From positions 372,001 through 436,000 of the forward strand of contig NC_089434.1 of assembly GCF_026210795.1 (NCBI RefSeq): a stretch of 64,000 nt of DNA, given 5' to 3'. Shown one piece after another: positions 4,330 through 64,000 of the stretch. Source of the DNA: Rhizophagus irregularis (taxonomy: Eukaryota). Each line of letters starts with the position of its first letter. Position 1 is the first letter of the stretch. The notes under the pieces were generated by a model. The model made no database searches. It had not been told where the DNA came from and worked only from the letters and a program-made list of their open reading frames with translations. Made by a program: the position numbers and the translations under genes.

Positions 4330-5450
4330 ATGAAAATTAATATTCAAGTAGTTTCAGTCCGCCTGAATAATTTCAATTAATAAAGAAAGTTGATTTCATT
4401 TGACTAAAGTGGAGATATTATGCTCTAAATTAAAAAACAGAGAAGAGAGTTAATATTATCAAGAAAAATGCAATTTTCTCCAAGTACTATACTTACATTC
4501 ATGAAAATTAATATTTAAGTAGTTTCAATCTGCCTGAACAACTTTCAATTAATAAAGAAAGTTGATTTCATTTGACTAAAGTGGAGATATTACGCTCTAA
4601 ATTAAAAAACAGAGAAGAGAGTTAATATCATCAAGAAAAATGCAATTTTCTCCAAGTATTACACTTACATTCATGAAAATTAATATCCAAGTAGTTTCAA
4701 CCCGTCTGAACAACTTTCAATTAATAAAGAAAGTTGATTTCATTTGACTAAAGTGGAGATATTACACTCTAAATTAAAAAACAGAGAAGAGAGTTAATAT
4801 CATCAAGAAAAATACAATTTTCTCCAAGTATTACACTTACCTTCATGAAAATTAATATTCAAGTAGTTTTAACCCGCCTGAACAATTTTAAATAATAAAG
4901 AAAGTTGATTTCATTTGACTAAAGTGGAGATATTACGCTCTAAATTAAAAACAGAGAAGAGAGTTAATATCATCAAGAAAAATATAATTTTCTCCAAGTA
5001 TTACACTTACTTTCATGAAAATTAATATTCAAGTAGTTTCAACCCTCCTGAACAACTTTCAATTAATAAAGAAAGTTGATTTCATTTGACTAAAGTGAAG
5101 ATATTATCTCTAAATTAAAAAACAGAGAAAAGAGTTAATATTATCAAGAAAAATGCAATTTTCTCCAAGTACTATACTTACATTCATGAAAATTAATATT
5201 TAAGTAGTTTCAATCCGCCTGAACAACTTTCAATTAATAAAGAAAGTTGATTTCATTTGACTAAAGTGGAGATATTATGCTCTAAATTAAAAAACAGAGA
5301 AGAGAGTTAATATTATCAAGAAAAATACAATTTTCTCTAAGTACTATACCTACATTTATGAAAATTAATATTCAAGTAGTTTCAATTCTGCTGAAATAAA
5401 GTTGATTTCATTTGGCTAAAGTGATGAAATTATAACCTGAAGTTAAAAAA
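4330..5450 (-). repeat. ~171-172 bp tandem repeat, 6 full copies plus a partial copy
   Basis: Unit starts at 4330, 4501, 4673, 4845, 5015, 5186, 5358; on the minus strand the units carry a GTAAGT...TTAAC...TTTAG intron-like segment of ~72 nt. Confidence 0.9.
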
Positions 5451-7319: not shown

Positions 7320-7580
7320 AGGCACAGTAGATCCTAATTTTCCACATGATTTTCTGACGTAGTAATGATTTTGCAATAATTGATCTACATCTGGTTTGTT
7401 TGTCATATATGCAATGATGCAATGCTTGTACTTGCTTTTGTACATAATGTATTTTGCATAAATATTATTACCATATTTATTCATACTAATAAAGACGTTT
7501 AAAAGGCATTTAATAATAATAAAAAAAAAAAGAAAAGAAGATATTTATCTTTTTCAATTAGGAAGAGTTTTGATATAGCA

Positions 7581-10500
7581 ATGGGCCAATGTATTGGTAA
7601 AGGTAAAGCATATAACATGATTAATAATATAAATTGGAATTATTCAAATTATTAAAACAAACTTGCAATATAATAAAACTAGTTTTGTGTAATACCAAAG
7701 AACCTGAAGGTAAATATTATATAGTACAAAACAAAATTGAAATAATAAGATTTTTATCTATTAAAAAACTTAATTGTAAATAATCAAATACAAATAAACC
7801 AAATTTGCAATATAACAAAACTAGTTTCCAGTAATATTGAAGAATTTGAAGAAAGTGGCACTGAAGAATTTGAAAGAAGTAGCATTGAGAAATTTGAAGA
7901 AAGTGGCACTGGAGAATCTAAAGGTATATCAAACAAGCTGAAATATTAAATTTTTATTTATAAACAATTCAAATACTATCTAGGCTAACTATATTATATA
8001 AAATATATAAAAATTATATTAAATATTTAGCTCGTAAGTTAATATAATGAATTACTCATTATTTTTATTGCATTCCATATAACTAAATAATTTATTCAAT
8101 AATTAATAATCTGTAGTTAGTAAGTTATCAGTTATTTAAATCTTTAGTCCTTTACTTTATTTATTCTATACAACATTCAAATAACTAAATTCTTTGTTTA
8201 AATAACTATTTAATAATTAATTGTATTACAGATGGTAAGTTACAATATAAATATAATATTTATTTGTTTAATATTTTACATAATTCAACTAATTATATTC
8301 TTAATTTAAATAACTAGATTGTAAGTAATATATATAATTTACAGTAAATACATTTATATTATTTTTATATCTAACTAATTAATAATTAATAATACTACAG
8401 GGTGTAAGTTATATGATATTTATATTTATATTATTTATATAATTTAAACTATCTAATTTCTTTATTTAAAAAATCATTAAATAATATAGGGAGTAAGTTA
8501 TTTATTTAATTCTATTATTACTTATTGTTATTATATTTACATATAATTTAAACTATCTAATTTCTTTATTTATTTAATAGTTCGTAAGTTATTTATTTAA
8601 TTTTATTATTACTTATTGTTATAATATTTACATATAATTTAAACTATCTAATTTCTTTATTTAAAAAATTATTTCATAGATGGTAAGTTATTTATTTAAT
8701 TCTATTATTACTTATTGTTATAATATTTACATATAATTTAAACTATCTAATTTCTTTATTTAAAAAATTATTAAATAATATAGAGAGTAAGTTATTTATT
8801 TAATTCTATTATTACTTATTGTTATAATATTTACATATAATTTAAACTATCTAATTTCTTTATTTATTTAATAGTTTGTAAGTTATTTATTTAATTTTAT
8901 TATTACTTATTGTTATAATATTTACATATAATTTAAACTATCTAATTTCTTTATTTATTTAATAGTTTGTAAGTTATTTATTTAATTTTATTATTACTTA
9001 TTGTTATAATATTTACATATAATTTAAACTATCTATTTTCTTTATTTAAAAAATTACTAAATAATATAGGGAGTAAGTTATTTATTTAATTCTATTATTA
9101 CTTATTGTTATAATATTTACATATAATCTAAACTATCTAATTTCTTTATTTATTTAATAGTTCGTAAGTTATTTATTTAATTTTATTATTACTTATTGTT
9201 ATAATATTTACATATAATTTAAACTATCTAATTTCTTTATTTATTTAATAGTTCGTAGGTTATTTATTTAATTCTATTATTACTTATTGTTATAATATTT
9301 ACATATAATTTAAACTATCTAATTTCTTTATTTAAAAAATTATTTCATAGATGGTAAGTTATTTATTTAATTCTATTATTACTTATTGTTATAATATTTA
9401 CATAAGTTTTACATATAATTTAAACTATCTAATTTCTTTATTTAAAAAATTATTTCGTAGATTGTAAGTTATTTATTTAATTCTATTATTACTTATTGTT
9501 ATAATATTTACATATAATTTAAACTATCTAATTTCTTTATTTAAAAAATTATTAAATAATATAGAGAGTAAGTTATTTATTTAATTCTATTATTACTTAT
9601 TGTTATAATATTTACATATAATTTAAACTATCTAATTTCTTTATTCAAAAAATTATTAAATAATATAGGGAGTAAGTTATTTGTTTAATTCTATTATTAC
9701 TTATTGTTATAATATTTACATATAATTTAAACTATCTAATTTCTTTATTTAAAAAATTATTAAATAATATAGAGAGTAGGTTATTTATTTAATTCTATTA
9801 TTACTTATTATTATAATATTTACATATAATTTAAACTATCTAATTTCTTTATTTAAAAAATATTTATGATCTAGCTTGTAAGTATCTCTATTATTATATA
9901 TTTTATATAATATTTATTTGTTAATTTAACTCTTTCATTTAAAAAAATATTTATGACTTTAGTTGGTAAGTTGTAAATTATAGATTATTATATGTATTTA
10001 TCCAAAAACTAAGACTTATATTACATTAAATTCCTATTTAAATTTTAGAGTAAGTAATGATTTATTTTAGTGTAAATTATAATACAATCTATAATATAAT
10101 TTTAATTCTTTAAATTTATAGATTTGGGAAAAGTGGAAATGCAATTATAGATGATTTTGTTCTTAAAAAAAAATTAAGGTGGATTCCTTATAACAAATTT
10201 AAAAATGTTGAATATCTTAATGAAGGAGGATTTGGTACTACTATATACAAAGCTACTTGGTTAAAGAATAATGGAGATGAAGAAGTAATTCTTAAATGTC
10301 CCAAGAATTTAAATGAAAATTTAAATGAATTTTTAAAAGAAGTATGATAGTATATTATTTTCTATTTTTAAATTTATTTATATTTAATAATAATAATTAT
10401 TATTTTTTATAGTGGGAATATCATACAAGTGTTTTATCTTCAAATGATATTATAGATGTTTATGGATTCACAGAAGATACAAATACTTCAAAATATATGG

Positions 10501-11510
10501 TAGTAATGTACTATGCAAATAAAGGTAATTTAAGAGAAAATTTAACAAGAATAGTCGAAAATAAATGGAATCAAAAATTATATATGTTGTACGAAATTAT
10601 TTCTGGACTTAGTAAGATACATAGAAATAATCTTATTCATTGTGATTTTCATGATGGTAATATTTTAAATCATAATGATAAGAATAAGGATAAAATTTAT
10701 ATTAGTGATTTAGGATTATGTCAACCTGTAAAATCGTTTTTGAAAAAGTATGGTATTTATGGTGTTATACCATTTATGGCTCCTGAAGTTTTAAGAGGCA
10801 AATCTTATACTCCAGCTAGTGATATATATAGTTTTTCTATGATTATGTGGGAACTTACATCCGGGGTACCACCATTTAATGATAGAGCACATGATCTTCA
10901 ACTTAGTTTAAGTATTTGTAAAGGTGAACGACCTGAAATTATTGAAAATACTCCACAATGCTATGTAGATTTAATGAAAAAATGTTGGAATGAAGATCCA
11001 TTGAAAAGGCCATCTACTTCAGAAGTGAATGGTATTATTAAGAATTGGATTATCCGTCCTGATGGTAAAATTAATGAAGAATTAAAAAGCAACATTATGG
11101 AATTTATAAATGCACCAATTGTGCATAGCGATCTAGCTACTAAATCTCATCCTAAAGCATATTATACAAGTCGCTTACTTGATTTCACTAGTAAAAAATT
11201 GAATGAAATTCTTGAAAGTGAAAATTTGGATAATTATATAATTAAAGATTTGAAGTCATTAGGTACTATGCAATATAGTGCATATAAAATTTAATCTTGC
11301 AAATTATTTGTGAAAATAATTTATTTATTTATTTATTTAGATATTAAGGCAGATGAAAATACTAGTGAAAACTTGAATGAAATTCTTGAAAGCGAAGATT
11401 CACAAGCTAGTGTAAAAGTAAATGAACAGCTAGTAAGTGACGATTTGGATGATTATATGATGCATTCAACAAAAATTGTTCTTTATTTTATTCTTTTTAG
11501 ATTTATTTAA
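7581..11510 (+). CDS. TKL-family protein kinase with lipidation-type N-terminus and microexon array (possibly a disrupted allele)
   Basis: Proposed exons 7581-7602, 7683-7709, 7825-7923, 21 three-nt exons 8031-9965, 1-nt exon 10049, 10122-10341, 10413-11262, 11341-11510. Kinase motifs EGGFG, VILK, HCDFHDGN, SDLG, APE, SDIYSF. Confidence 0.8.
8031..10049 (+). repeat. Tandem intron+microexon array (core units of 91, 99 and 104 bp)
   Basis: Every unit reads TAG/CAG-NNN-GTAAGT (two have GTAGGT); the core units have a CTAAT branch-like motif. Confidence 0.9.
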
Positions 11511-11745
11511 ACACTAAGGCTAGAGTAGTAAAATGTTTTACAAGTTTCTTAGTTTGTAATTTAAATAATTCTTTTTTTTTAGCTTATATTTTTATATTCA
11601 CTTTTTTTATTATACTTAGAATTATTTAAACACTAGGACTAGGTAGTAAATATTTTACAAGTTTCTTAGTTTGTAATTTAAATAAATCCTTTTTTTTTAT
11701 TTTAAAACTTTTCCAATTATGAGATATAAATTATCAAAATAATAA

Positions 11746-20168: not shown

Positions 20169-23100
20169 TTAAACAGAATTTTTCTGATCGTCATCAATCA
20201 CAGTATCAAGATCATCAAGATCATCTGTAAAAGTAAGTAATTGAGATTTAGGTGTAATAGTTGATTGGTTGCTTTTAAAATTTTTAAAAATATTTTCTTT
20301 GTAATAACCTTCATCAAAATCTTTAAAAAATGCTCTACGACGTTCATGGTATTCGGTATTAGTATCAAGCGCTATTAAAAAAGCAATTGGCCTATTGTCT
20401 GGATTTGAATCCCAACAACTTTTCATTATGTCAATATATTCTTTTGGTGCTTCCCACTCTTCTATTTTAGGTCTCATCCCTCTACATATATTTAATATTA
20501 GGCATTTATCATGTATATGATCAGCAAAAGGTTGCCTTCCAGTTGCTATAAAATACATAATCATACCGAAGCTATACATATCTGCCGCCTTAGTATAGGG
20601 TTTTCCTCTCAACACTTCAGGAGCCATATAAGACATAACTCCACACATATGTTTTTCGTTCATATCATTAATATCTCCACATAATCCAAAATCTGAAATA
20701 AATAAATCAAAAGAAACAAGATGACCAGTTGCTAATATATTTCCTGTATGAAGATCTCGATGAACTATATTTTTATTATGCAAGTGACTAATACCACGAA
20801 TAATTTTATTTATTGCTTTCATTTTTCCCTCCATTCGATATCTTTATAATAATTAGTCATCCAATTATTAAGATCTCCACCTTCCGCATATTTAAGAACC
20901 ATAATATAATTTTTTGTATTAGGATCTTGAGATATTCCGAACATTTCAAGAATATTTCCTTGATAAGTACGTGTTTTTGTTGAGTACTTTTTAATCTATT
21001 AAAATATCAATTTTTCAGTTATAATAATACTATTATTTAAATTGAATTTAATAAAAAAATTTCATACCTCATTCAAAAATTTATCAGGAATATTTTGTGA
21101 ATTATCTAAACACTTTAAAGCAACTTCTTCATTATACTTTCTTTCATATTTATATTCCTCTTCATTGTAAATTAACGGACCATCATTCCATATTGCTGAA
21201 TATACTGTAGAAAACCCACCTTGTCCTATTTTTTCAATGTTACTAAATTGATCGTAAGGTATCCATTCAAATATTACATAATAATAGCCACCTATATTCG
21301 ATCGCATTTCTTGAATGAGATTATCAATCCTTTTATTTCCACTGGTCCAATTTTTATTTAAACTGCTTATTTGACACGGTTTACACCATTTATAATGTAT
21401 ATGATTATCATCTATATATTTTTCATCACATTTTTCACATCGTTCAAATTCAACTATTCTAATATAATTTTTTGAATCTGGATTTTGAGATATTCCATAT
21501 ATTTTACAACTACTATGATTTTCAATTTGACTAGAATCAATCTATTAAATAAAAAAAATTGTATTATTAAAAAATTGAATATATTGTAAATAAACTTGAA
21601 TATTAAAATACAAAAATATTTATAATTCATACATTTTTTAGAAGTTCAGTTATATCTTGTGAATCGTGTACCTTTAAAGTAACTTTCTTATTCGATTCCC
21701 TTGTTTGTTCTTTCTTACAATATGATGGTCCATCAATCCAAATTGCTGAATATACTGCATCAGTTTCTGTTTCTTTAATATCACTTAATTGATCATATGG
21801 TATCCATTCAAATATTATATCGCCATTACTAATTTGTAATTGCATTTTTTGGATAAAATAATCAATTTCCTCATTTCCGCTGGTCCAGTTTGTAAAATTA
21901 TTTTGTAAATTATCTAATTTGCATGGTATGCAATGCCCGTACCATACATAATAACGTTTAAATATTTCACTATAACCGCATTTTTCACAATAATATAAAT
22001 GATCAAAATGATCAAGAACCATAATATAATCTTTTGTATCTGGATCTTGAGATATACCATAAATTTTATGATCATGACCATCACGATCACTATTAATTGA
22101 GTGATATTCCATAAGCTTATATAATAAAAAAAATTAATATTACGTTAAAAAAGAAAAGGATAATATTTTGTATAAATAATTTCATACCTCATCTAGAACT
22201 TCCTCATTTATATTTTGTGAATTATACACATATTTTAAAGCAACGCCTTTATTTGGTGATTTTCTTATTAATTTCTTTTTTCCAGAATGATAACTTAACG
22301 GGCCATCAATCCATGTTGCTAAATATAATGTAGTTGGACCATTGCCTATTTTTCGAGTAATATTTAAATGATCATACGGTATCCATTCAAATATATTATC
22401 GTCAACTTTTATTTGTCTTGATCGAATTTCTTGAATCAATTTATTAATAGTTTTATCCTCGCTAATAAACTTGTTTTCTAAATCTTTTAATTGACATTCT
22501 CTACACCATTCATACGCTCGCATGCCACAATTTTCGCAAAAGCCATGATAAACCATCATATACTCTTTTGTATATGGATGTTGAGTTATTGCAATTATTT
22601 TACGTCCAATGCGAAATGAATCATGTTTTTCAATCTAATAAAATAAGTAGTTATCGAATAAAAAAAAAAGAAGAAAATCAGTTAATTAATGCAGCACATT
22701 TTAACAATCTTTAACATAATCAACTAATTTAATTTTAAAATAATGATAATTACCTCTTTTATAAATTCAGTTGCACTTAGTGAATTGGTACTTTTTATAA
22801 CTTTTATAACAACTTTTCTATTTGATTTCCTCCTATATATTTTTTTATTAAAATCATAATACAATGGACCATCCCTCCATATTGATGAGTAGAGCGTACA
22901 GGATTCATCATAATTTTCCATTTTTTCAGTTTTTCCAAAATCATAGTGTAGTATCCATTCAAATGTCGTATATTTTGGATCATTAATTTTTTCTAATTGC
23001 TTTTGTCGAATATAATCATCAATCTTTACATTTTCACTAGTCCAATTTTTAAAATTTTTTACAAAATAATTCGTTTGACATGATTGACACCATTTATTCT

Positions 23101-23845
23101 CGTCATTATCGTCTTCAGTATTTTTGGTTAAATTTTCTAAGCACTCATTACAATCTACTACAAGGCCCTCTTTTATTATGCCACTAGGTATATATATAAA
23201 TTTAATAGGAAAATCATAAAACTCCATGCAAAATAATAATAAAATATATGAAAAAAGAAGTATTTCCAAGGCACCTATTTCTAAGAAACTAAGGTCAAAT
23301 AAATAATTTGAATCTAATATAACAAACAATATAGATGCATATGATGAAGTTAATATAATTTTTGTGGAAATGAAACATGAATAAAAAATTTTTTCAAAAA
23401 AATTTTCAATGTTAGTTACATAATAAAGAAAAGATCTGAATTCTTCCATACGCATCTCTCTCATTATAGCAAAACTAGTTTCACGTTTAAGATAAGGAAT
23501 ATAAAAATCAAGAAAAATCATCATCTTGATCTGATTAATCATCAAAATCGGATAATACATTAATTTTATTTTTAAAGGTTTAATTTCATCTTCAATAGAT
23601 TCAATTAAACGTTTGGATCCATCATCAATAGATGCAAATTCATGTTTAATACTGGATTTAAAAACACGTTTAAATTCTTCATATTCTTCATCAGCGGAAT
23701 AAAAATCACAAAAAAGAAACCAGTCTCGACATATCACAAACAAAACTGTCATACATAATGAAGCTGCGAAAATAGAATATGAGAAAGCTATGAAAATAGA
23801 AAACAAGAAAATGACCAATCTGATGTCAATATTGATTAGACCCAT
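20169..23845 (-). CDS. TKL kinase with hydrophobic N-terminus and four tandem Cys-rich/N-lobe modules; 1-nt frameshift in the last exon
   Basis: Exons 23845-22754, 22634-22188, 22115-21633, 21541-21068, 20995-20169 with phase-0 GT-AG introns; HRDLHTGN, SDFG, APE motifs; frame breaks at an A5 run at 20822-20826. Confidence 0.8.
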
Positions 23846-24604
23846 GATTTTTATTTTTTTTAAAAAAAAAATAAAAATAAAAATAAGAACGATAAATAAA
23901 AGGTCACATACACTGTTTATATAGTTTAATAATAAGATTATTGGTTAAACTATATTAAGAACATCACATGCAAACAAAATTCTTTTCATTTATCGCCTAA
24001 ACCAGCTGATCTGCGGTCAAATCATGATTTTTATAGCGACTACTATTTTACTTTGTTTTATTTACTATTTTTGGATTAGGTTACCGTTGATTTAAGAGAT
24101 CTGCATCCCAAACATTGTTTTATTTTCCAAAATTAATTTAAGCAGTCCTAGTAGGACCCGAGCAAGGACAGGTCCTGAGAATGAGCCAAAAAATAATGTA
24201 GATCGCTTCTATTTGTGGATAATTCCGACCAGCATTACATAGTGCCGGCCCTGAAGAAATGCGTAGAGCTAATAGTAAATGTGTGCCGATCTCTCCTGAC
24301 CTACTTGATTGGTTGCAATAATACCTAATTGCGTGCGCAAGTGGAAGCTGTGCAAATTCGCAAAAAGCGACTTCAGTTCTTGTAAACTAATGTCAATGTT
24401 GACAAAAAACTTTTAAAGTTAATGTTCATTTATTTCTGTCACTGTATGTTCATGTAAGATTTATGTCTATTTTATTATATCTAGAATATCAATGAAGAAG
24501 CCAGATCATAGAGTTATTGTTGGATATAGGTTTAAATAAAGGTGCTTTACGGGTATTAGTAAGAATATCATTTCGCTTTGTAAAATAGAACTATGAATAG
24601 CTAA

Positions 24605-33068: not shown

Positions 33069-34441
33069 TATCTGAAATCAAATTATTTACAATTATTTAT
33101 TTTTAACAGGACTAGTTATAATGATATAAAAAGGGAAAATATCAATAACATTAAAAAGAAAATAGGGATAAAAAAAGGAAAATTACAATGATAAAAAAGG
33201 GGAAAATATGCCAATAAAAAAAGAAAAGCAATAACAAAGGAGAAGATATGACAATAATAATAGTAGAAAGGAAAAAATGATAAGGACAAAAAAGTAAGTA
33301 AAAAGTAAGTGAAAAAGTGATTAGACGAAAAGAAGTAAAAAATAATGATGGAAAACGAAAAGGAAGTGAAATAGATGATGAAGAACAAAAATAAAGTAAA
33401 AAGGAAGCGAAAAGAACAAGAAGGGGTACGAAAAGAGTGAAAAAAAGTAATCAGGACCGAAAATAATGGAACACGCCAACAATAAAAAAAAGAAAAAGAA
33501 AAAAAATTGGTTAGTGTCATTACAATAAATCGAAAAAACAAGAAAGATAGACCTATTTCAAATAAAAGCAGTAGACTTATTATCTAAAAAGAAAAATAAA
33601 GTTAGCAAAAAAGCACAAAATTATTAAAACAGTAAAATAACGAAAAATACTTAATTTGCTTCAAACAAACCATTTTTAAGTCGAAACGGCACTATGAAAA
33701 AAAAAGAAGACACGTTATTTAATAAACAAATAAACATTTATCAGATGATGATGTAATTGTAGCCAATCAAAAATATCAAATCTTCATAGAAAGATAAAAC
33801 ATTTTTATAAAAAGTTTCTTGAATGGTCACGTGCAATTTTGTTTGATTCTATGTGATTATAATATTATGTGTATAAAATAATCAAATAAATTATTTAAAC
33901 TACAAACTAAGAAAGCTGTATTAAAATCTAAATATTTTACCATCCGGAAATAAAAATTTTTATTATTAAAATTAAACAACGATAATAGCGAGATAGAGTT
34001 TGTAATTTAGCGACAAGTTCTGTAAAAGCAATTATATAGTTATATAGGTAAAATGACACTCTTTATTACGAATAAAGAATATGAATATACAATATACTGT
34101 ATGTTAGTGTACTTATTCAGGTTTGTACATTTTAGAGTAGAATTAAATTATTTTTTTTTTTTTACATTATAAGTTAATTTCATGTTCAAAAGATATAAGA
34201 AATTTCACTTCTATAATGAATAAATCAATTATATAGGCTAATTATATGCCTTTTTTATTTTATTAAAGTTAAATATTTCTATAATATAAGGAAATGAAAT
34301 TATTAAATTGGTACCACTATTCTTCACATTTTATTATATTAGAAATAAAAGAAATAAAAACAAAAAGAAAATTCACATTATGAAATTAATTAATTATCTA
34401 TACTTTTGTACATATACATACAGTATATATGAACTATATTT

Positions 34442-35665
34442 TTATGCAAAATCTTGAGGCATATTTGATGTTGCACTGCTACCGTCATTATTATGTTCTG
34501 AGTCCTCGTCTGAATCCTTTGGCAAAACGTTACCAGAGTCATCATTTGAAGCCGAATTTGATTCTTTCTTATCTGGATCATCTGGATCTGGCTCGTTAGC
34601 AGTTTTAGCTGGATCATCTGAATCTGGTTCGTTATATTCTTCAATTTTAGCTGGATCATCTGGATCTGGTTCGTTAGGTGTGACAGTTTTAGCTGGATCA
34701 TCTGGATCTGGTTCGTTAGCAGTTTTTGCTGGATCATCTGGATCTGGTTCGTTAGCAGTTTTTGCTGGATCATATGGATCTGGCTCGTTAGTTGTGGCAG
34801 TTTTAGCTGGATCATATGGATCTGGCTCGTTAGTTGTTGTAGTTTTAGCTGAATCATCTGAATATGGCTCGTTAGTTGTAGCAGTTTTAGCTGGATCATC
34901 TGGATCTGGTTCGTTGGGTGTGGCAGTTTTAGCTGGATCATCTGGATCTGGTTCGTTAGTTGTAGCAGTTTCAGTTGAATAATCTGAATATGGCTCGTTA
35001 GGTGTGGCAGTTTTAGCTGGATCATCTGGATCTGGCTCGTTAGTAGTTTTAGCTGGATCGTCTGGATCTGGTTCGTTAGTAGTTTTAGCTGGATCGTCTG
35101 GATCTGGCTCGTTAGTAGTTTTAGATGGATCATCTGGATCTGGTTCGTTAGTTGTAGCAGTTTCAGTTGAATAATCTGAATATGGCTCGTTAGTTGTGGC
35201 AGATTTAGCTGGTTCGTAAGGTGTAGCATTAGGGGTAGTTGTGCTAGGTAAATCTTGTGCCTGAAGTAAACCATTAATTTCTTTATTTTTTGGAGATTTT
35301 TCACAAAGTTCAGATGGTTGGCCTACTTCTGGGGTGTTTCGTTCTAATTGACGATATGTTATTGCAAGTTGAATAAGTTGTTTCTCTTTTTCTCCTCCGA
35401 GAGCATGACCTAGGTCAATTATTTCATCTGCTTTATCTTGTTGGTCACAAGCTGGTGCATCAGCAAAAAGTGCTTCTATTGCACTAACAGATAAATCAGC
35501 ACCCTCTGATTCTTTGTCAGTACCTTGAGTTAAATTCTTTATATCTTGAAAAATACTGACAGCTTGTGGGGAACCTTCATTTCCAAAACGTCTTTTGCTT
35601 ATAGGAGCCCCATGAGAAATTATAGCAAATGACAAAAAAACTGAGAGAACTGATGATAGCCTCAT
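34442..35665 (-). CDS. Secreted protein: signal peptide, KRR site, small Cys-containing domain, acidic Pro/Thr repeat tail
   Basis: 407-aa intronless ORF; hydrophobic N-terminus; roughly 15 NEPDPDDPAKT-type repeats. Confidence 0.9.
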   Translation of the reverse strand: MRLSSVLSVFLSFAIISHGAPISKRRFGNEGSPQAVSIFQDIKNLTQGTDKESEGADLSVSAIEALFADAPACDQQDKADEIIDLGHALGGEKEKQLIQLAITYRQLERNTPEVGQPSELCEKSPKNKEINGLLQAQDLPSTTTPNATPYEPAKSATTNEPYSDYSTETATTNEPDPDDPSKTTNEPDPDDPAKTTNEPDPDDPAKTTNEPDPDDPAKTATPNEPYSDYSTETATTNEPDPDDPAKTATPNEPDPDDPAKTATTNEPYSDDSAKTTTTNEPDPYDPAKTATTNEPDPYDPAKTANEPDPDDPAKTANEPDPDDPAKTVTPNEPDPDDPAKIEEYNEPDSDDPAKTANEPDPDDPDKKESNSASNDDSGNVLPKDSDEDSEHNNDGSSATSNMPQDFA

Positions 35666-38600
35666 TGGTAGTTTATCAAAAAAAGAATGTTTAAAACGAT
35701 ATTAAATGTTTATGATGGGAGATTTTAAAGTAGGGGAAAAATTTAGAGAGGGGGAAAAAAAGAGAAACTTAAGGGAGGAAATTTAGAGCACCAGCTCTAT
35801 TGTATATAAATTTTTTTTTTTTTTTTTTTGGATGAAACGATATGAAGGATGAGTGAGTGAATGATAAAATTTTGAGATTATTTATATCTTTTGAAAAAGA
35901 GTGATTTACAAAATTATCATTATTTCCATCTTTAGTATTTGAGATTAAGTTAGGATATTTTACAGTATCGTTTCTCAATTTTTTATTGTCAATCATTATA
36001 TGTCATCATCCAATAATAATGGGAGAATAAATTTAGGTAACCTTGAAAGAGCAATTAAAATAAATTTGATCGACGATAAATTACCCATTTGATTTCCGAA
36101 ATATTCGAGTTTAAACACATAATAAACTTTTTTAAATTTTCATACTATATTTCGTTTTTTCGGAATTGTAAATCTATAACCTTTATTAATATCATTCTCA
36201 ATAACTAAATTTTATATATAAAAGAATTTTCGTTTTATAATAATTTAAAATAAAAAAAAAAAGAAAAACTGATCTCCAAATTATTAGTATGATCGTCTTG
36301 CATTTTGTGTTACAATATGTTTATAAACCCTTTTAAATTAATTTGAAATATAATTCCGTTTATTAAATTAATTTCGGTTATTATGGAAAAAAAAAAAAAA
36401 AATTATTTTCCATATTTAAAGGATTTTCGGTGACTTATCCATAATTAACTATATCCCACATTTCGGATTTTCGGTGAATTACCCATAATTAAAAAATAAT
36501 GAGAGTAAATCCCGGTATCAATCTATAATCATAAGTTATATAATTTTTATTAATTAAATAACATTTTTTTTTTTATACGTATAATCATATGATACGACAA
36601 ATATGTAAGTAATAATACTGTATATTCATACGAGTAATAATTTTCCTTTAAAAAATTATTGGTTTATAATATATAAATTATTATATGTCCTATAATTAAT
36701 AATTCGACCAATTTTCTGCAAATAGTAAAAAAGAATTTAATTCCGAATGTTAACCTCGTACACTTATAAATAATAGTAATAAACATATCCATTACATGGA
36801 AACTTCTACTAAAAAAAGGTTTTTCATCCGAGTAGGGAAGATAATTAATTAAAATTCGATGATTAAATGATCAAAAGGATAACTTAAAAAGAAGGTTAGG
36901 ATCAAAATTGACTAAATAAAGTAACATTATAGCGAAAATAAAAAATTAACTAAATAATGGGTAACATTATAGCGTTAATCAAATATAATAAATTAAATGA
37001 ACTGATTTTGAACCGGGAACCGGGAACGATTTTTAGAAATACTTTTTTTTTTTTCGTATGTATTTCGTTTATATTTAATATTATAAAATAAATTTAGGTT
37101 ATAATAAATATTCTTTTTTTCATTGAACATCGTTTTATTATAATGAATATATAATTTTTTTTTTTTGTTTTTCAAATGTATCTCGTCATTATCAAAAAAT
37201 TTAAATTAAGGTTATATAATATAATAAATATGATTTATTCACGTTTCATTAAAAATTTAAATGAGCAGCGTAAGTTATAATAAGATTTTTTTTTTTAGAC
37301 AATTTTGATAATTTAAGATTAAATAAACAAATAAAATTAACAAAATAAAATTTTTTATATTCTCGTAATTAGAATGATAAAAAAAAAAGTTCTTTATTTT
37401 ATAATTAATAATTTTACCATATTTGAATAGTATAATACAGTTCTTCATTATGCTTAAAACAAAAATCGACTTGTTATGTCCACTTATAGGTAATTGATTA
37501 TACACCGATCCTGTTATGAATTTCCACGAAGTTATAAATGCCAGATATTCGGGATAAACCGATACCAAGACACGTTAAAAAAATGAAATATTAAATGGGT
37601 TAAACATTGAGATTTTCTTGAGAAAGAATTTATTTTTTTCAGAAATATATAATGAGGTTAGGTCGTTTTTACGAACTAACGTATAAATGTTAATATTTAC
37701 CATTATTCTTAGTGCCTAAACATACCTGGATGATAATTCCTCCCTCGTGAATGGACGGCACTTCATGTTTTTATAACGTAACATTCTTATAGAATATATT
37801 GTTAAACTTACTACTCTACACATTATCAAAGGATATTACGAAAAATTAAGAGGAAATTCGTCAATTATGTGTATAATAATTGGAAGGTCCAGAAAAGCGA
37901 AACTATTAATTATTATCGTTATATTCTGAATCCAATACTCTTAAATGTTCCATTCGAATTACAAATAACATTCCGTAGAAAGAAATTTACTACATTGTTA
38001 CGCAGCAAAGGGCGCCTGCACATTATTGATGAAATAGTCAAATTCTGAAACTGTTCGTCATTGTTTTTTTACATCATGCGCCTATTGAAAACGTGTGCGG
38101 AATGACCTTTAAAGATATTACATATTGCGAAAATATAACTTCCGGCACTTGAGATAGATCCGCGGATGTTAAAAAATATATAGGATTTTCATCCACATGA
38201 ATGTCGCCCATGATACAGAATAAATCCCGGTTACTGATCAACTTAATACGGTGCATTACTTCATTAGGAAAATTATTCGGCATATTAACCATAAGAAAAT
38301 AACAATATATTTATTCTTTTGTTAAAATAAAATACTAACATTGGATTATCCGCAGTTAACATAAATGGTTAATCGTATTTTTCGTATTTTGAATTTAAAA
38401 ATGGAATGTCCAGTGATGTCACAGGAACGCCCAAACCGACGTTAAGTAGTGGTCTTTGGAACACGCTAAACAATATTTTGAGAATATGAACGATTCATCT
38501 TAGAAACTAATCATTTGTTATCCTTCAAAAAACGCTTCGCTTAAAGGATCATCCATTGTCACTTCAACTATACTTGCATGATTAATCTTACGGTAAATAA

Positions 38601-42959: not shown

Positions 42960-43714
42960 TTAAATATTTTATTATTTATTTATGAATTCGAAAACACAAT
43001 TTTACGATTTATTTGCAAATTCGATAAGATTTCAATAATGCATTTTTACAATTTCGATCAAATCAGCTGACGATCGCTTTAATGTGCAGTAACTTCTTAC
43101 AAGCGACTTCGATGCTAAATTATAACTTTCATGAGACTAAATCGCAAGTAAATCTTATTAAAAATTTCACGATAAATTTTCGATATGATCAATATTTGAT
43201 TTCAATTTTAAAAGTTTCTGTAAAGAAATGTTATTTAATAAAATACTATGCACACGAATATTGCGAAAAATCAAATAAAAGTATTATATTAAAAAACAAC
43301 TAGCAATAAATTATATAAAATAATAAGAATAATCATAAGAAATATTTAAATTAAATATTTCTTGTCATTTTTTAATTAAAAACTATAAGCGTTTTAAGAT
43401 GAATGTTCTTATGCTTTGAATAAAATTATTAATTTATTAATTTATTTGAGTACGAAAATTTTTTAATACTAGTACTCATAAAATAAAATTTAATTTGCTG
43501 TGTCACATTACAAACCAATTAAATTTAAGAAGGTTTGACTCGGGTCTTAGGTTAAGGACGCTCTTACTAAATTCGTTTGTACTTATAGTTACATGATAGT
43601 CACACAACATTTGGTAATACATAAAACGGATGAAAAACTCCGCTTCTAGAATTTTTTTAAGCTACAAAATCTTTTTTTTTTTATAGTTTAAACATTTTAT
43701 AAGAAAATTACATT

Positions 43715-46054
43715 ATGTCTTATATTCGAAGAGAATTAGTTGCTGCTTCAATTAATAGAGCAAATGTATCAATAGATTATAATATTTATGATAATATACA
43801 TAAAATACATGAATTTAAAAAACAAACTATACTTGCTGATAATTTTCTTACAAATGATGAAAAAACTTATGCAATAAAAGATTTGAATAAGACATATGAC
43901 AAGAATAAAATTAATTATAATTCGGGAACAAGAAGAATTTGTGAAACTTGTAACCAAGAATGCTTAGCTACATTATATTGTGAATATTGTGTTCAAAATT
44001 ATTTAAAAGCAAACTTTTCAAATTGGACATCTGGAAATAATGATATTGATAATTTAATACAAAAATGTCAAATCGAAGCACTTCATCCACAGATGATAAT
44101 TGAATGGATTCCATATAATAATTTACAAAATATTAAATATTTAACAAAAGGTGGATTTTCTGAAATTTATACAACAGTTTGGATTGATGGAGGTTATACA
44201 GAATGGGATTCCAAAGAACAAAAATTAATAAGATTTGGAAGACAAAAAGTAATACTTAAAGGTTTAGAAAATGTTGAAAATGCAAATCAAAGATGGTTTG
44301 AAGAGGTTTGTAATTTAATGATATTTTATTATTACTTTCAATTTAGTAAATATATAATAAAATTTTATTATAAACATATATAGGCTGAATCACACTTAAA
44401 AATAAGCAATAAATCTCCAGTAATTGTTCAATGTTATGGTTTAACACAAAATCCATCAAATGGAAATTATATGCTTGTAATAGAGAAAGCAGATATAGAT
44501 TTAAGAAAATATCTACAACAAACTCAAAATCAACTTACATGGAAAGAAAGAATAAAAGTTGCTTATGATATAATTGTTGCACTAAGTGTTATTCATAGGG
44601 AGAATGCAATTCATAGAGATTTGCATTCTGGAAATATATTGTATTCGGAACTATATCAACAATGGTTTATTAGTGATCTTGGATTTTGTGGACCTGCTGA
44701 TAAATCATCAGAAAGTATATATGGTAATCTTCCTTACATAGCACCAGAAGTTATTTCTGGAAAGAAAACTACAATAAAATCTGATATTTATAGTATTGGA
44801 ATGTTAATGTGGGAAATTTCATCTGGACAACCCCCTTTTAGTTATTATGAAAATTATTATAATCTTGCATTGAATATAATTAATGGAATGAGACCAAAAG
44901 TAATATCAGGAACTCCTTTAAAATATGAAAATTTAATGAAACAATGTTGGGATGCTGATCCATTAAAAAGACCTGAAATTGGTACACTTTTTGATGGAAT
45001 TTATGAAATTCTACAATTTTATCAAAATATATCAAATGAAATACTTCAACAAGAAACAAATAAGAATTTAGAAAGAAACAAACTAATAAACAACTCAATG
45101 TCAAAACATGTAAGTAGCAAATTATTTACAAGTAACATTCATCAATTTAAAAATTTACCGGAACCAAGAAATGCAACAGAAGGTATATTTTAGTATTTAT
45201 TATATTTATTAACAATTAATAGTTGTTTTTAAAAATATTAATATTGTTTTTAATTTAAATAATAATAGAAGAACAAGAAGGTAAAAATAATGGATATGTA
45301 TTAGAAATATGTGAAATATTTGATTATTTTTTCTAACTTTAAAAAAAAAATATTTTATAGCATTTCATAGTAAATCATATGATTGCTTTAATATTCCTGA
45401 TAATAGTAAGTAATTAAATATATTGATATATACAATGCAAATTATTAATTATTTTTTATTATTACTAGTTGAAGATTTTAACAATTCAAGTAATCAAAAT
45501 TATGCTGGTGCTTCCAATTTAAAAGGTAATTAATTTTTAATAATATGAATACATAGTAGCCATTTGATTTTAATTTGTAATAATTATAATTATTGATGTC
45601 CTTAAATAATTTTAGATGATAGTGAAGAATTATCTAAATCATTTAATGAATTACAAATAAATTCAAATGAAGGTAAATAATCATTCTATTTTGATTATAA
45701 ATTTATATCTTGAAATTTAATATATTTTACATTTATTTAGACAATCAAATTAATTATGGAAAAGAAATTGTTGAACAACAACAAATAAAGCAATATAATC
45801 TCAACATTGATGGTACGTAAAATTGCAACAATAACTAATTATATAATATTCATTTTATATATCTTTTTTTTTATAGATGATGATGAAACTTATGATGATA
45901 AAAATTTTCATTCAGAAGAAGAAGATGTGTTCGAAATTCCGGATGGCAAGTATTTCATATTACCATTATATTCTTTATATTTTTGCAAGAAAAATAACTA
46001 TATTTATTTTGTTTTTTATTTATTAATTGATTAATTAATTTAGATGGATTTTAA
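43715..46054 (+). CDS. TKL-family protein kinase, 9 exons
   Basis: Exons 43715-44305, 44384-45182, 45269-45280, 45361-45405, 45469-45525, 45616-45672, 45741-45812, 45877-45945, 46044-46054; HRDLHSGN, SDLG, APE; last intron GC-AG. Confidence 0.88.
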
Positions 46055-47100
46055 ATTATTTAATTTCCGACGGATTATATTTTTTTTTATTTAGAATTAT
46101 TTAAACACTAAGTATAGAGTAGGTAAATTTTTTACAAGGTTCTTAGTTTGTAATTTAAATAATTCACTATTTTATTATTATTGTTATATAACTTCGTTAT
46201 TCATTAAATAAATAGTTTAACTTTTTCGATAACATAAAATTTTTAATTTACTGCAAATAAAATTATTTTGTATATGGGAGTGGGAAGTTTAATACTAATT
46301 TAATGAGTTTATAATAAATAGGTCGTAACGATAGGGCCAGTTAATGAATAAAATTTTTATATTTGAACAAAGTGGATATGATTTGTTCGTTAAATTGTGT
46401 TTCAATAATATAAAGTAAAATGGAAGTACAAAAATATTTCAGCTTTCTATCAATTTATCACGTGAATTTTTAGCTTAATGATCGATCAAATTAATGACCA
46501 TCATAATGCCGGCTGAAATTACATTCAATCACGTGATATTGTCGTTAACGATCATGGATATTGATATAAATGCAGTATTTGATTAATATATAATTTAATG
46601 ATTATTACAAAATATTATTATTAACAAATTAAATGTGTGGAATGTATGGATAATTTAATAACAATGTTAAAATTTGAGTTACAATTTATTTCATCATTGA
46701 TTGCAACGTAATATTTATTTTATTCCCATTTATTAATATTTGGATAAGTAACATTAGTTATTATTGTTCATTTATTAGGAATATGCGGGATTTTGCTGAC
46801 CGATATTTTTATGAGACATTCAATATCAGTATTAGTAGCATTAATTCCTATTGGTCACCGCAGTATTCCCAATAAATAACTCAGTTATTGGGATGTCGGC
46901 CTTCGACCGATATCTCTATTCCCCCGTCCAATAACTATTTATTATGGATTTTTATATTCGTCCATTAAATGTGTACACAATTATTACCATATAAATTACA
47001 AGGCTAAAACATTAAACTCTAGACTCTTCTATTTAGATGAGAATGGTTACTAACTAATTATTCAGATACGCCATAATACTCAGAAATTCATATTTGAGCT

Positions 47101-61800: not shown

Positions 61801-62796
61801 AGCTGCCAACTACATTTTCTTCTTGATAGTTTTAAAGGAGATCCTGTTTTTCTTCGATCACTTCATTATAAAAATTGATATTTTTTTTTCCAAAGATCTC
61901 AAAAAACAACACAGATTTAGAGGTAAATTCCATAATAAAACGAAAAAAGTTATTTAATAGTTAATAAATTAAAAAAAAATAAAATAAAACAGATAAAAAT
62001 AAAAAATAAGAAATTTTAAACTATCGCGTACAATGTAGCATGAAGAATCACCAAATTACTATAGAAAAATAACTATAAAATAAGAATATATTAAAAATTA
62101 ATAAATATAATAAAATAAGTTTTGCTCTTTTATAGAAACTAATTTTTTTTTTTAAAAAAAAAGAAAAGGCCACTTACGATAGTAAATACAGTTTTTTTTG
62201 CATTTTGCGCAAAATCTGACTGAATAACCATTATTATAAGCTTAGAAAAACTTTTTCTTCTCATAATTTTACATATATTACTACTGTTAAAACTATAAAT
62301 TTCTTCCTATCTCAACTTAGATATTGAAAAAAAGCTAGTTTTTAAAGCGATTTCAGTTTTCAGTACTTGTGAAAAAAATTTTTTATTTAACAAAAATGTG
62401 CAAAATGTTCCGATTAATGTTGCACAAAATTGGTTAATATGAAAATGATCTGCGTGTGACATTTCCGGTGACTGATATAAAAAAATTTTTAGTCGACATT
62501 ATCTCTTTCCTATATGATGATGTTTTTAAAGAACAAAACGTAAATTTATAATGAAATAGTGCAATTTTTGTAATGTCCAAGAAAAATATCGAGAAAAAAT
62601 ATATAACTACTGATAAAACTTAATAAATTTACAATCGTTTTTAATAAATCTCGATATAGTGGTTGATCTGCCAATTCTGCCATGGCGTAATATTTTGTTA
62701 CACCTAACCGCTAATTTAATCAAATGCCGATCACGAAAATGAACCTTCTTTTCTACAAATTTCTTAGTTTATAAAAAGATAATATAAAATTGCATT

Positions 62797-64000
62797 ATGT
62801 CTAATATTCGAAAAGAAGTAGTTAATGCAGCACTTAATAGAACATTTGCATTATTAGATACTACTATTCATAATAATATACATAAACATTTTGAATTTCG
62901 AAAACAAACACTTCTTGCTGATAAATCTCTTACAGAAGATGAAAAAACTGAGGCAATAAAAAAAATAACTGAAACTTATGATAGAACTAAAATTCTTCAT
63001 AATTCAGGAACAAAAAGAATTTGTGAGAATTGTAATCAAGAATGTTTGGCTACATTATTTTGTGAATATTGTGTTCGAAATTATTTAAAAGCAAATTTTT
63101 CAAATTGGACGTCTGGAAATGATAATATTGATAACTTAATACAAAAATGTCAATCAGAAACACTCTTTACGAATAAGATAATTGAATGGATACCATATAA
63201 TAATTTACAAAATATTAGTTACCTAACAGAAGGTGGATTCTCTAAAGTTTATACAGCAAATTGGATTGATGGAAGATATAAAGTATGGAATTCTAAAGAA
63301 CAGGAATTAGAAAGATCTGATCGTAATTTAAATGTAATACTTAAAAGATTAGAAAATATTAATGCAAATCAAAGTTGGTTTGAAGAGGTTTGTATTTCAA
63401 AAATGTATAATTAGAAGTTCTTAATATAAAAATTTTTTAATAAATTGTTTTTTTTTTATAGGCTAAATCACACTTAACTGTAAGTAGTAAATGGCCACGT
63501 GTTGTTGACTGTTATGGTTTAACACAAGATCCGTCAAATGGAAATTTCATGCTTGTATTAAATAAAATGGATGTAAATTTAAGAGAATATTTACAACAAA
63601 ATCATAATCAACTTACATGGAAAGAAAGGATTCAAATTACAACTGATATAATTTATGCACTTGGTGATATTCATGAGGAGAATGCAATTCATAGAGATTT
63701 GCATTCTGGAAATATATTATATAAAAAAAGAAATCAGGATTGGTATATTAGTGATTTTGGATTTTGTGGCCCTGCAGACAAACCATTAAAAAGTATATAT
63801 GGAAATCTTCCTTATATAGCACCTGAGGTTATTGCTGGAAAACAGGCTACAAAAGCATCTGATATTTATAGTTTTGCTATGCTTATGTGGGAAATTTCAT
63901 CTGGACAACCACCATTTCTTAATTGCAAACATGATTGTGATCTTATATTGAATATTATTAATGGAATAAGACCAAGAATAGTATCAGGAACCCCTTTAGA
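62797..64000 (+). CDS. TKL-family protein kinase (partial), paralog of 43715-46054
   Basis: Exons 62797-63387 and 63462 to window end; same first-intron position as the paralog; HRDLHSGN, SDFG, APE. Confidence 0.9.

Follow-up and report, generated by a model that had tools for sequence, protein, structure and literature searches.

A stop codon split between two codon-sized exons of a predicted microexon array in a Rhizophagus irregularis kinase gene: a candidate by-product of array reshuffling

Codon-sized microexons were reportedly described by Iotti et al. in 2012 in the nank (NACHT-ankyrin) genes of Tuber melanosporum. As far as the available parts of two accounts go, the nank genes carry tens of one-codon exons, form an expanded fungal gene family and have been proposed to serve protein diversification (PMC4986451, PMC13449251). 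Tiny exons appear elsewhere in fungi as well: a single-nucleotide exon is described for CYP621A of Fusarium (PMC12940212), and in Coprinopsis cinerea exons no longer than 3 nt occur in 89 gene models (1 nt in 13 of them), with 27 three-base exons in 26 genes (PMC12230235). Fungal NLRs with shuffled repeats of high internal conservation and brown-algal receptors in which each repeat has its own exon are mentioned in the accessible text of one of these accounts (PMC13449251). In Rhizophagus irregularis, the commonest motif among expanded genes is PF07714, according to the portion of the report at hand (PMC6123716).

We analyzed a 64,000-nucleotide stretch of the R. irregularis genome (hereinafter the window; coordinates refer to it and to its plus strand unless indicated otherwise), in which a gene containing a PF07714 kinase domain appears to include, ahead of that domain, a run of codon-sized exons, two of which jointly spell a stop codon. 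In what follows, P numbers denote public protein models, L001 to L005 are metagenome loci, and X6 and X16 to X20 are sequence-contig runs.

The kinase ORF of this gene (10413-11294) matches P0001, an R. irregularis kinase by name, with 100% identity over 97% of the query; 1953 homologs were found, and the best 120 are all from Rhizophagus wherever the organism is given. The cluster member P0121 scores 139.8 bits against PF07714 (PK_Tyr_Ser-Thr; cut-off 23.1), and the Pfam hits for P0121, P0002 and P0014 are to kinase families only, with NACHT and ankyrin domains absent. With the domain above the cut-off and many close paralogs, the array-bearing gene is a member of the PF07714 kinase expansion of R. 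irregularis; kinase genes of other subfamilies are located in the window at 20169-23944 (minus strand), 43703-45193 and 62788-64000. The first kinase exon (10122-10341) encodes the N-terminal cap, the Gly loop and the Lys; RNA coverage begins at 10122, and X16 contigs splice 10341 to the next exon. The main kinase exon (10413-11262), assigned to PF07714 from the identity to P0001 and the Pfam score of P0121, is followed by the last predicted exon (11341-11510); this exon departs from P0122 and P0002 at its end, where it enters sequence belonging to the 3' flank in L001. Both the array and the three exons that precede it are missing from the public models of the kinase gene (P0001, P0121 and P0123-P0125). 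Within the first kinase exon, an in-frame phase-1 AG is present at 10148-10150; models P0002 and P0008 seem to join exon 3 directly to the equivalent of this AG, which would bypass the array, and no joint of this kind was seen in the RNA.

The predicted gene opens with exon 1 (7581-7602), which starts with the ATG at 7581, encodes a Met-Gly start with Cys at position 4 and ends in phase 1; we take this Met-Gly-x-Cys start to be reminiscent of lipid-anchor motifs. N-termini akin to exon 1 are found in P0002, P0008, P0014 and P0139, and the starts of P0002 and P0034 are Met-Asp, unlike the Met-Gly-x-Cys start of the window gene. Exon 2 (7683-7709; 27 nt, phase 1-1), for which the evidence is an X18 loose end ahead of 7823, and exon 3 (7825-7923; 99 nt, phase 1-1), which encodes acidic Glu/Ser/Gly repeats and is covered by X18 and X20 RNA contigs, complete the part of the gene ahead of the array; among the runs mapped on 7500-8420, a paralog RNA contig of X18 has the joints between exons 1, 2 and 3 spliced.

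Between 8031 and 9965 lie 21 units, each a 3-nt exon preceded by AG and followed by GT, with introns of 80-112 nt; the splice-site pairs are intact in 21 of 21, and all units are symmetric and share near-common splice signals. The region 7950-10050 holds 21 YAG-NNN-GT(A/G)(A/G)G sites, compared to a mean of 0.026 and a maximum of 1 in 500 first-order Markov resamples, and the array accounts for 21 of the 25 such sites on the plus strand of the entire 64-kb window; on either strand, no run of 3-nt units was detected in the window outside 8031-9965. At 60-1100, short exon-like units follow one another, with donors of the form GTAAGT and acceptors rich in T; they include a 110-bp tandem repeat at 798-1034. 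The five 3-nt exons at the 5' end of the array (8031, 8117, 8232, 8318 and 8401; 8031-8403) appear older and are separated by diverged introns, and the last two (9875 and 9963; 9875-9965) are conserved: an X16 RNA contig ends in both triplets, and in the X20 consensus the first is present and the second differs by one base.

A linker exon is needed downstream of the array because the kinase exon at 10122 starts in phase 2. Two linkers can be proposed, namely, a one-base exon (A at 10049, donor GTAAGT), which connects phase 1 to the phase-2 kinase exon and puts the array in phase 1, and a five-base exon (10049-10053) with the donor GTAATG, under which the array would be in phase 0. The single A between AG and GTAAGT is found in the window, in L001 and in L002. 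The metagenome scan yielded five loci, with 125 nt of upstream sequence kept for L001, 338 nt for L002 and none for L004; no arrays were detected near the match in L003 and L005, and the prokaryote and viral collections yielded no loci. The introns flanking the one-base exon (9966-10048 and 10050-10121) agree with those of L001 in 46 of 49 positions and in 70 of 72, respectively, with a kinase dS of about 0.14; L001 matches these introns better than it matches the kinase exons. No transcript-derived protein spanning the array was found among the hits of the region searches (6 and 15) or of the representative search (129 hits, 31 N-termini viewed).

The central part of the array (8426-9861; period 104 and 14.5 copies according to TRF) aligns as 14 units, each consisting of an intron and a 3-nt exon, with three classes of acceptors: class A with GGA or AGA exons (8490, 8784, 9070, 9565, 9669 and 9773), class B with TTC or TTT exons (8581, 8875, 8966, 9161 and 9252) and class C with ATG or ATT exons (8680, 9351 and 9461). 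Within a class, core introns of equal length differ at 0 to 4 sites, and the intron together with the AGA exon at 9464-9567 (exon 9565-9567) is identical to 8683-8786 (104 of 104 positions in blastn), a pattern from which we infer that the core arose by very recent tandem expansion. The GGA and AGA exons that follow (9669-9775) also belong to class A. The ATT exon (9461-9463) belongs to a class C unit that is a sibling of the two ATG units, from which it differs by an 11-nt duplication in the upstream intron (9397-9407) and two substitutions, one of them in the acceptor. This unit may have arisen by mutation from an ATG copy or may be an older variant of the family, the latter because the same combination of acceptor and ATT, followed by a class A acceptor, is also present in the distant relative L002, where the unit after ATT yields Ser rather than a stop. 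L002 has, at 1-200, the intron unit family of the array, and its unit after ATT looks degenerate, with a non-consensus donor and a partial duplication. Exon triplets vary more within classes (3 of 9 sites) than introns do (11 of 285; Fisher p=0.006), a comparison that involves few sites in related units and includes one change at a CpG. Judging by gene models, the paralogs P0042, P0027, P0014 and P0017 contain strings, in a phase-0 reading, that resemble arrays differing in length but alike at the ends.

The phase in which the array is read decides whether there is a stop at all, and the RNA sequences of paralogs bear on this directly. The RNA is available as assembled contigs, which drop rare isoforms and are unable to phase the array. 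Four runs map to 9862-10800 (X16, X17, X19 and X20), of which X16 and X20 cover the exon start at 10122, and X17 and X19 are without coverage of 10118-10341; among the runs mapped to 7500-8420, X18 and X20 are informative, X16 has no match there, and X6 behaved as DNA. An X16 contig of depth 11 that comes from a paralog or another isolate (4 mismatches in 119 positions) contains, upstream of 10122, a single A, then the last two triplets of the window and, further upstream, a run of ATG triplets reading as Asp in frame; this contig is unbranched across about nine triplets. A single A likewise stands before 10122 in the consensus of three contigs from X20, with an agreement of only 0.71 upstream. 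At the opposite flank, RNA of X18 continues past exon 3 with the first triplet and two bases of the second, and RNA of X20 with the first four triplets and the first base of the fifth, in both cases in order. In paralogs, the flanking triplets are spliced into mRNA, as the contigs of all three runs attest, and phase-1 splicing with a one-base exon is demonstrated for sister genes in two studies. For the window copy itself, the RNA of the sister genes points to the same phase; the sequence-only reading had taken the array to be in phase 1, and the paralog contigs at both flanks, all from sister genes, side with it against phase 0. Five RNA contigs (three of X16 and two of X20) do not derive from the window copy because they lack its insertion at 10236. 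No RNA contig is attributable to the window copy across the array, which is no evidence of silence, and skipped array forms were not seen in the contigs of X16, X18 and X20, which drop rare isoforms and cover the flanks.

The exons ATT (9461-9463), AGA (9565-9567), GGA (9669-9671) and AGA (9773-9775) are each flanked by AG and by GTAAGT or GTAGGT; the introns of this section measure 96-107 nt. In phase 1, the T at 9463 joins the AG at 9565-9566 to form TAG, exactly as the sequence-only reading had proposed; phase 1 therefore entails TAG in the all-exon message, whereas phase 0 would have no stop. This TAG is codon 66 of the all-exon message, the sole stop ahead of the kinase and the sole stop in the 427 codons through 11262. 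The other particulars of that proposal were recovered as well: the AGA exon at 8784 follows ATG and gives Glu, the one at 9773 follows GGA and gives Lys, and, among the 21 single-exon skips, only the loss of 9461 or 9565 clears the stop, with the skip of 9565 reproducing the peptide LHDWKTFE. When the 14 core exons are shuffled, 67% of 100,000 random orders contain one stop or more (mean 0.85, observed 1), so that the single stop represents neither enrichment nor depletion; it is unsurprising because the core appears to be a very young tandem expansion and so many of the shuffled orders hold a stop. The 14 core exons can be combined, in order, into 16,384 subsets, of which 10,330 are open and yield 4,978 peptides; under independent skipping, the computed share of open messages is 46% at 0.3 per exon and 9% at 0.05 per exon.

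Apart from the stop, the gene does not look like a decayed pseudogene: the 427 codons through 11262 hold no other stop, and the kinase deviates in 1 of 123 conserved columns, compared to a median of 3 in 100 homologs; a very young null allele would look just as intact. The dN/dS of the kinase relative to L001 is 0.63. A one-residue (3-nt) insertion in the Gly loop, near 10236, is found in 1 of 82 homologs and is a useful marker of the allele. The C-terminus differs from that of P0122, which otherwise matches, and this alteration is probably a deletion relative to a P0122-type allele. An insertion of the 117-bp repeat (11484-11700) into the last exon was considered and rejected, given that L001 has the same sequence in its 3' flank. 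In the 11341-11700 region, this tandem repeat of 117 bp comes after the last exon; similar copies are located at 46078-46190 and 33872-33920. Other repeats in the window include a 172-bp tandem repeat at 4330-5386 (6.2 copies, 93% matches) and, on the minus strand, a 42-bp tandem repeat (16 copies) within an ORF of 419 aa (34442-35701) that begins with a hydrophobic, signal-like segment and contains Thr/Asp/Pro/Glu repeats of 14 residues.

The reading that we favor, with a probability of roughly 0.55, is that the stop is a by-product of array reshuffling and that the window copy is a weak or null allele which would make kinase only when 9461 or 9565 is left out of the message. Under this reading, the array would have grown recently by copying of whole units, each an intron plus an exon, and unequal recombination or slippage between near-identical introns would add, remove and reorder units, one codon at a time. 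The near-identical introns supply about 100 bases of homology per codon, and therefore unequal exchange would change single codons without a frame shift; each new neighbor would create a new residue because the codons straddle two exons. The product would be a hypervariable peptide rich in Trp, His, Asp and Phe, placed after the acidic linker and directly ahead of the kinase, and a stop would arise now and then. By analogy with the nank genes of Tuber only, this peptide might have a role in recognition. With eight junctions downstream of the stop, the all-exon message is probably a target of NMD, and inclusion is probably the main path, which would make the window copy weak or null in a birth-and-death family. 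The paralog RNA, which takes in the flanking triplets in order, speaks for the by-product reading, as do the near-identical core units, the greater variation of triplets than of introns, the apparent arrays of differing length in paralog models, the Gly-loop insertion, the altered C-terminus and the belief that, outside animals, intron retention prevails over skipping, as expressed in the available part of one source (PMC6142364). The undecayed kinase and the intact splice-site pairs count against it, as do the reports, in the accessible parts of the sources, that codon-sized exons in Tuber are extensively alternatively spliced (PMC4986451, PMC13449251). The earlier claim that functional mRNAs must skip exons follows logically from the stop, and obligate alternative splicing is possible, with no skipped form seen; among the origins suggested, a recent duplication or mutation fits best with the near-identical introns and a stop expected by chance, and an NMD switch is without support.

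The main rival, which we consider possible but distinctly less probable than a reshuffling by-product, is routine combinatorial skipping of the kind reported for Tuber, whereby most mRNAs would drop some units, the gene would produce many kinase isoforms that differ in the peptide ahead of the kinase, and the stop would remove only a part of them. The symmetry of the units and their near-common splice signals would permit such skipping, the intact kinase and the Tuber precedent are compatible with it, and the excess of open core subsets, with nearly half of the messages open at the higher skipping rate, would make it productive. The low upstream agreement of the X20 contigs could also reflect skipping, and paralogs explain it equally well. 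However, skipped forms were not seen, the contigs include the flanking triplets in order, and the lower skipping rate would leave only about one message in eleven open. In its most ambitious form, which we hold just as tentatively, Rhizophagus kinases would possess a codon-shuffling device in which genomic reordering combined with combinatorial skipping in mRNA generates thousands of recognition peptides rich in aromatic and acidic residues, and the window allele would work only by skipping; if this is true, nature has supplied in this allele a proof that skipping is obligate in an arbuscular mycorrhizal fungus.

The remaining explanations appear far less plausible. Near-identical units extending over 1.4 kb invite errors of assembly or polishing, in the order of units or in the base at 9463 or 9565, but the ATT unit has three distinguishing features, the succession of an acceptor with ATT and a class A acceptor recurs in L002, and the many private differences between units would presumably be erased by collapse or homogenization, which makes an artifact improbable. 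Even less credence can be given to a selected poison pair, in which regulated inclusion of 9461 and 9565 would tune the kinase level through NMD: the eight downstream exon junctions and the restoration of the frame by the loss of either exon are what such a switch calls for, but the junction is apparently very young and expected by chance, it is missing from the paralog RNA ends, L002 has Ser after ATT, and neither 9461 nor 9565 has a special splice signal. About equally remote is a phase-0 reading through the 5-nt exon, which would yield no stop and a hydrophobic stretch beginning at an ATG triplet or in an upstream exon. No stop interrupts this frame between 7579 and the end of the first kinase exon (10341), its first Met is at the 8232 triplet, and Ser-Lys precedes the kinase exon in 10 of 120 homolog models, as the 5-nt form predicts; yet both runs that cover 10122 have a single A before it (one contig of X16 and the consensus of three of X20), the one-base exon has the donor GTAAGT as opposed to GTAATG, and the frame of the Met-Gly start is phase 1. 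A minor alternative product in phase 0 (7579-10341) may nevertheless be made from an ATG triplet.

Taken alone, the stop is probably a commonplace accident of repeat turnover, and the surrounding array matters more. The array points to a hidden hypervariable segment in a part of the largest expanded signaling family of a model arbuscular mycorrhizal fungus, a segment that the public models examined leave out or read in another frame, and it would offer a largely clonal fungus protein variation one codon at a time. An allele dependent on skipping would be a ready-made test to distinguish splicing diversity from diversity created by genomic shuffling.

Compared with the known systems, the predicted array comes closest to the nank genes of Tuber, which, in the accessible parts of the accounts, likewise combine runs of one-codon exons with an expanded fungal family and are the nearest precedent. 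The host gene here, from an arbuscular mycorrhizal fungus, encodes a PF07714 kinase and not an NLR, and it has codons that, in the predicted phase 1, straddle exons, a terminal one-base exon and visible duplication of genomic units; alternative splicing is reported for nank, whereas no skipped form was seen in the paralog contigs considered here. The literature searched yielded no report of microexon arrays in mycorrhizal kinases, although subscription papers and supplements may contain one. With the Fusarium and Coprinopsis cases, as far as the accessible parts of those papers describe them, the locus shares a frame-critical one-base exon overlooked by annotation; those genes have about one tiny exon each, compared to 21 consecutive ones and an additional one-base exon here. 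The repeat-shuffling NLRs and the brown-algal receptors, again as portrayed in the available text, resemble the array in that near-identical internal units permit reshuffling of a variable region, and differ from it in that the homology here resides in introns and the coding unit is one codon. Poison exons are usually conserved, carry the stop themselves and, when included, introduce a premature stop coupled to NMD, whereas the stop in the window needs two exons, appears young and is expected by chance. Among all these systems, the array with its one-base exon in a mycorrhizal kinase is a variant of a known, rare layout.
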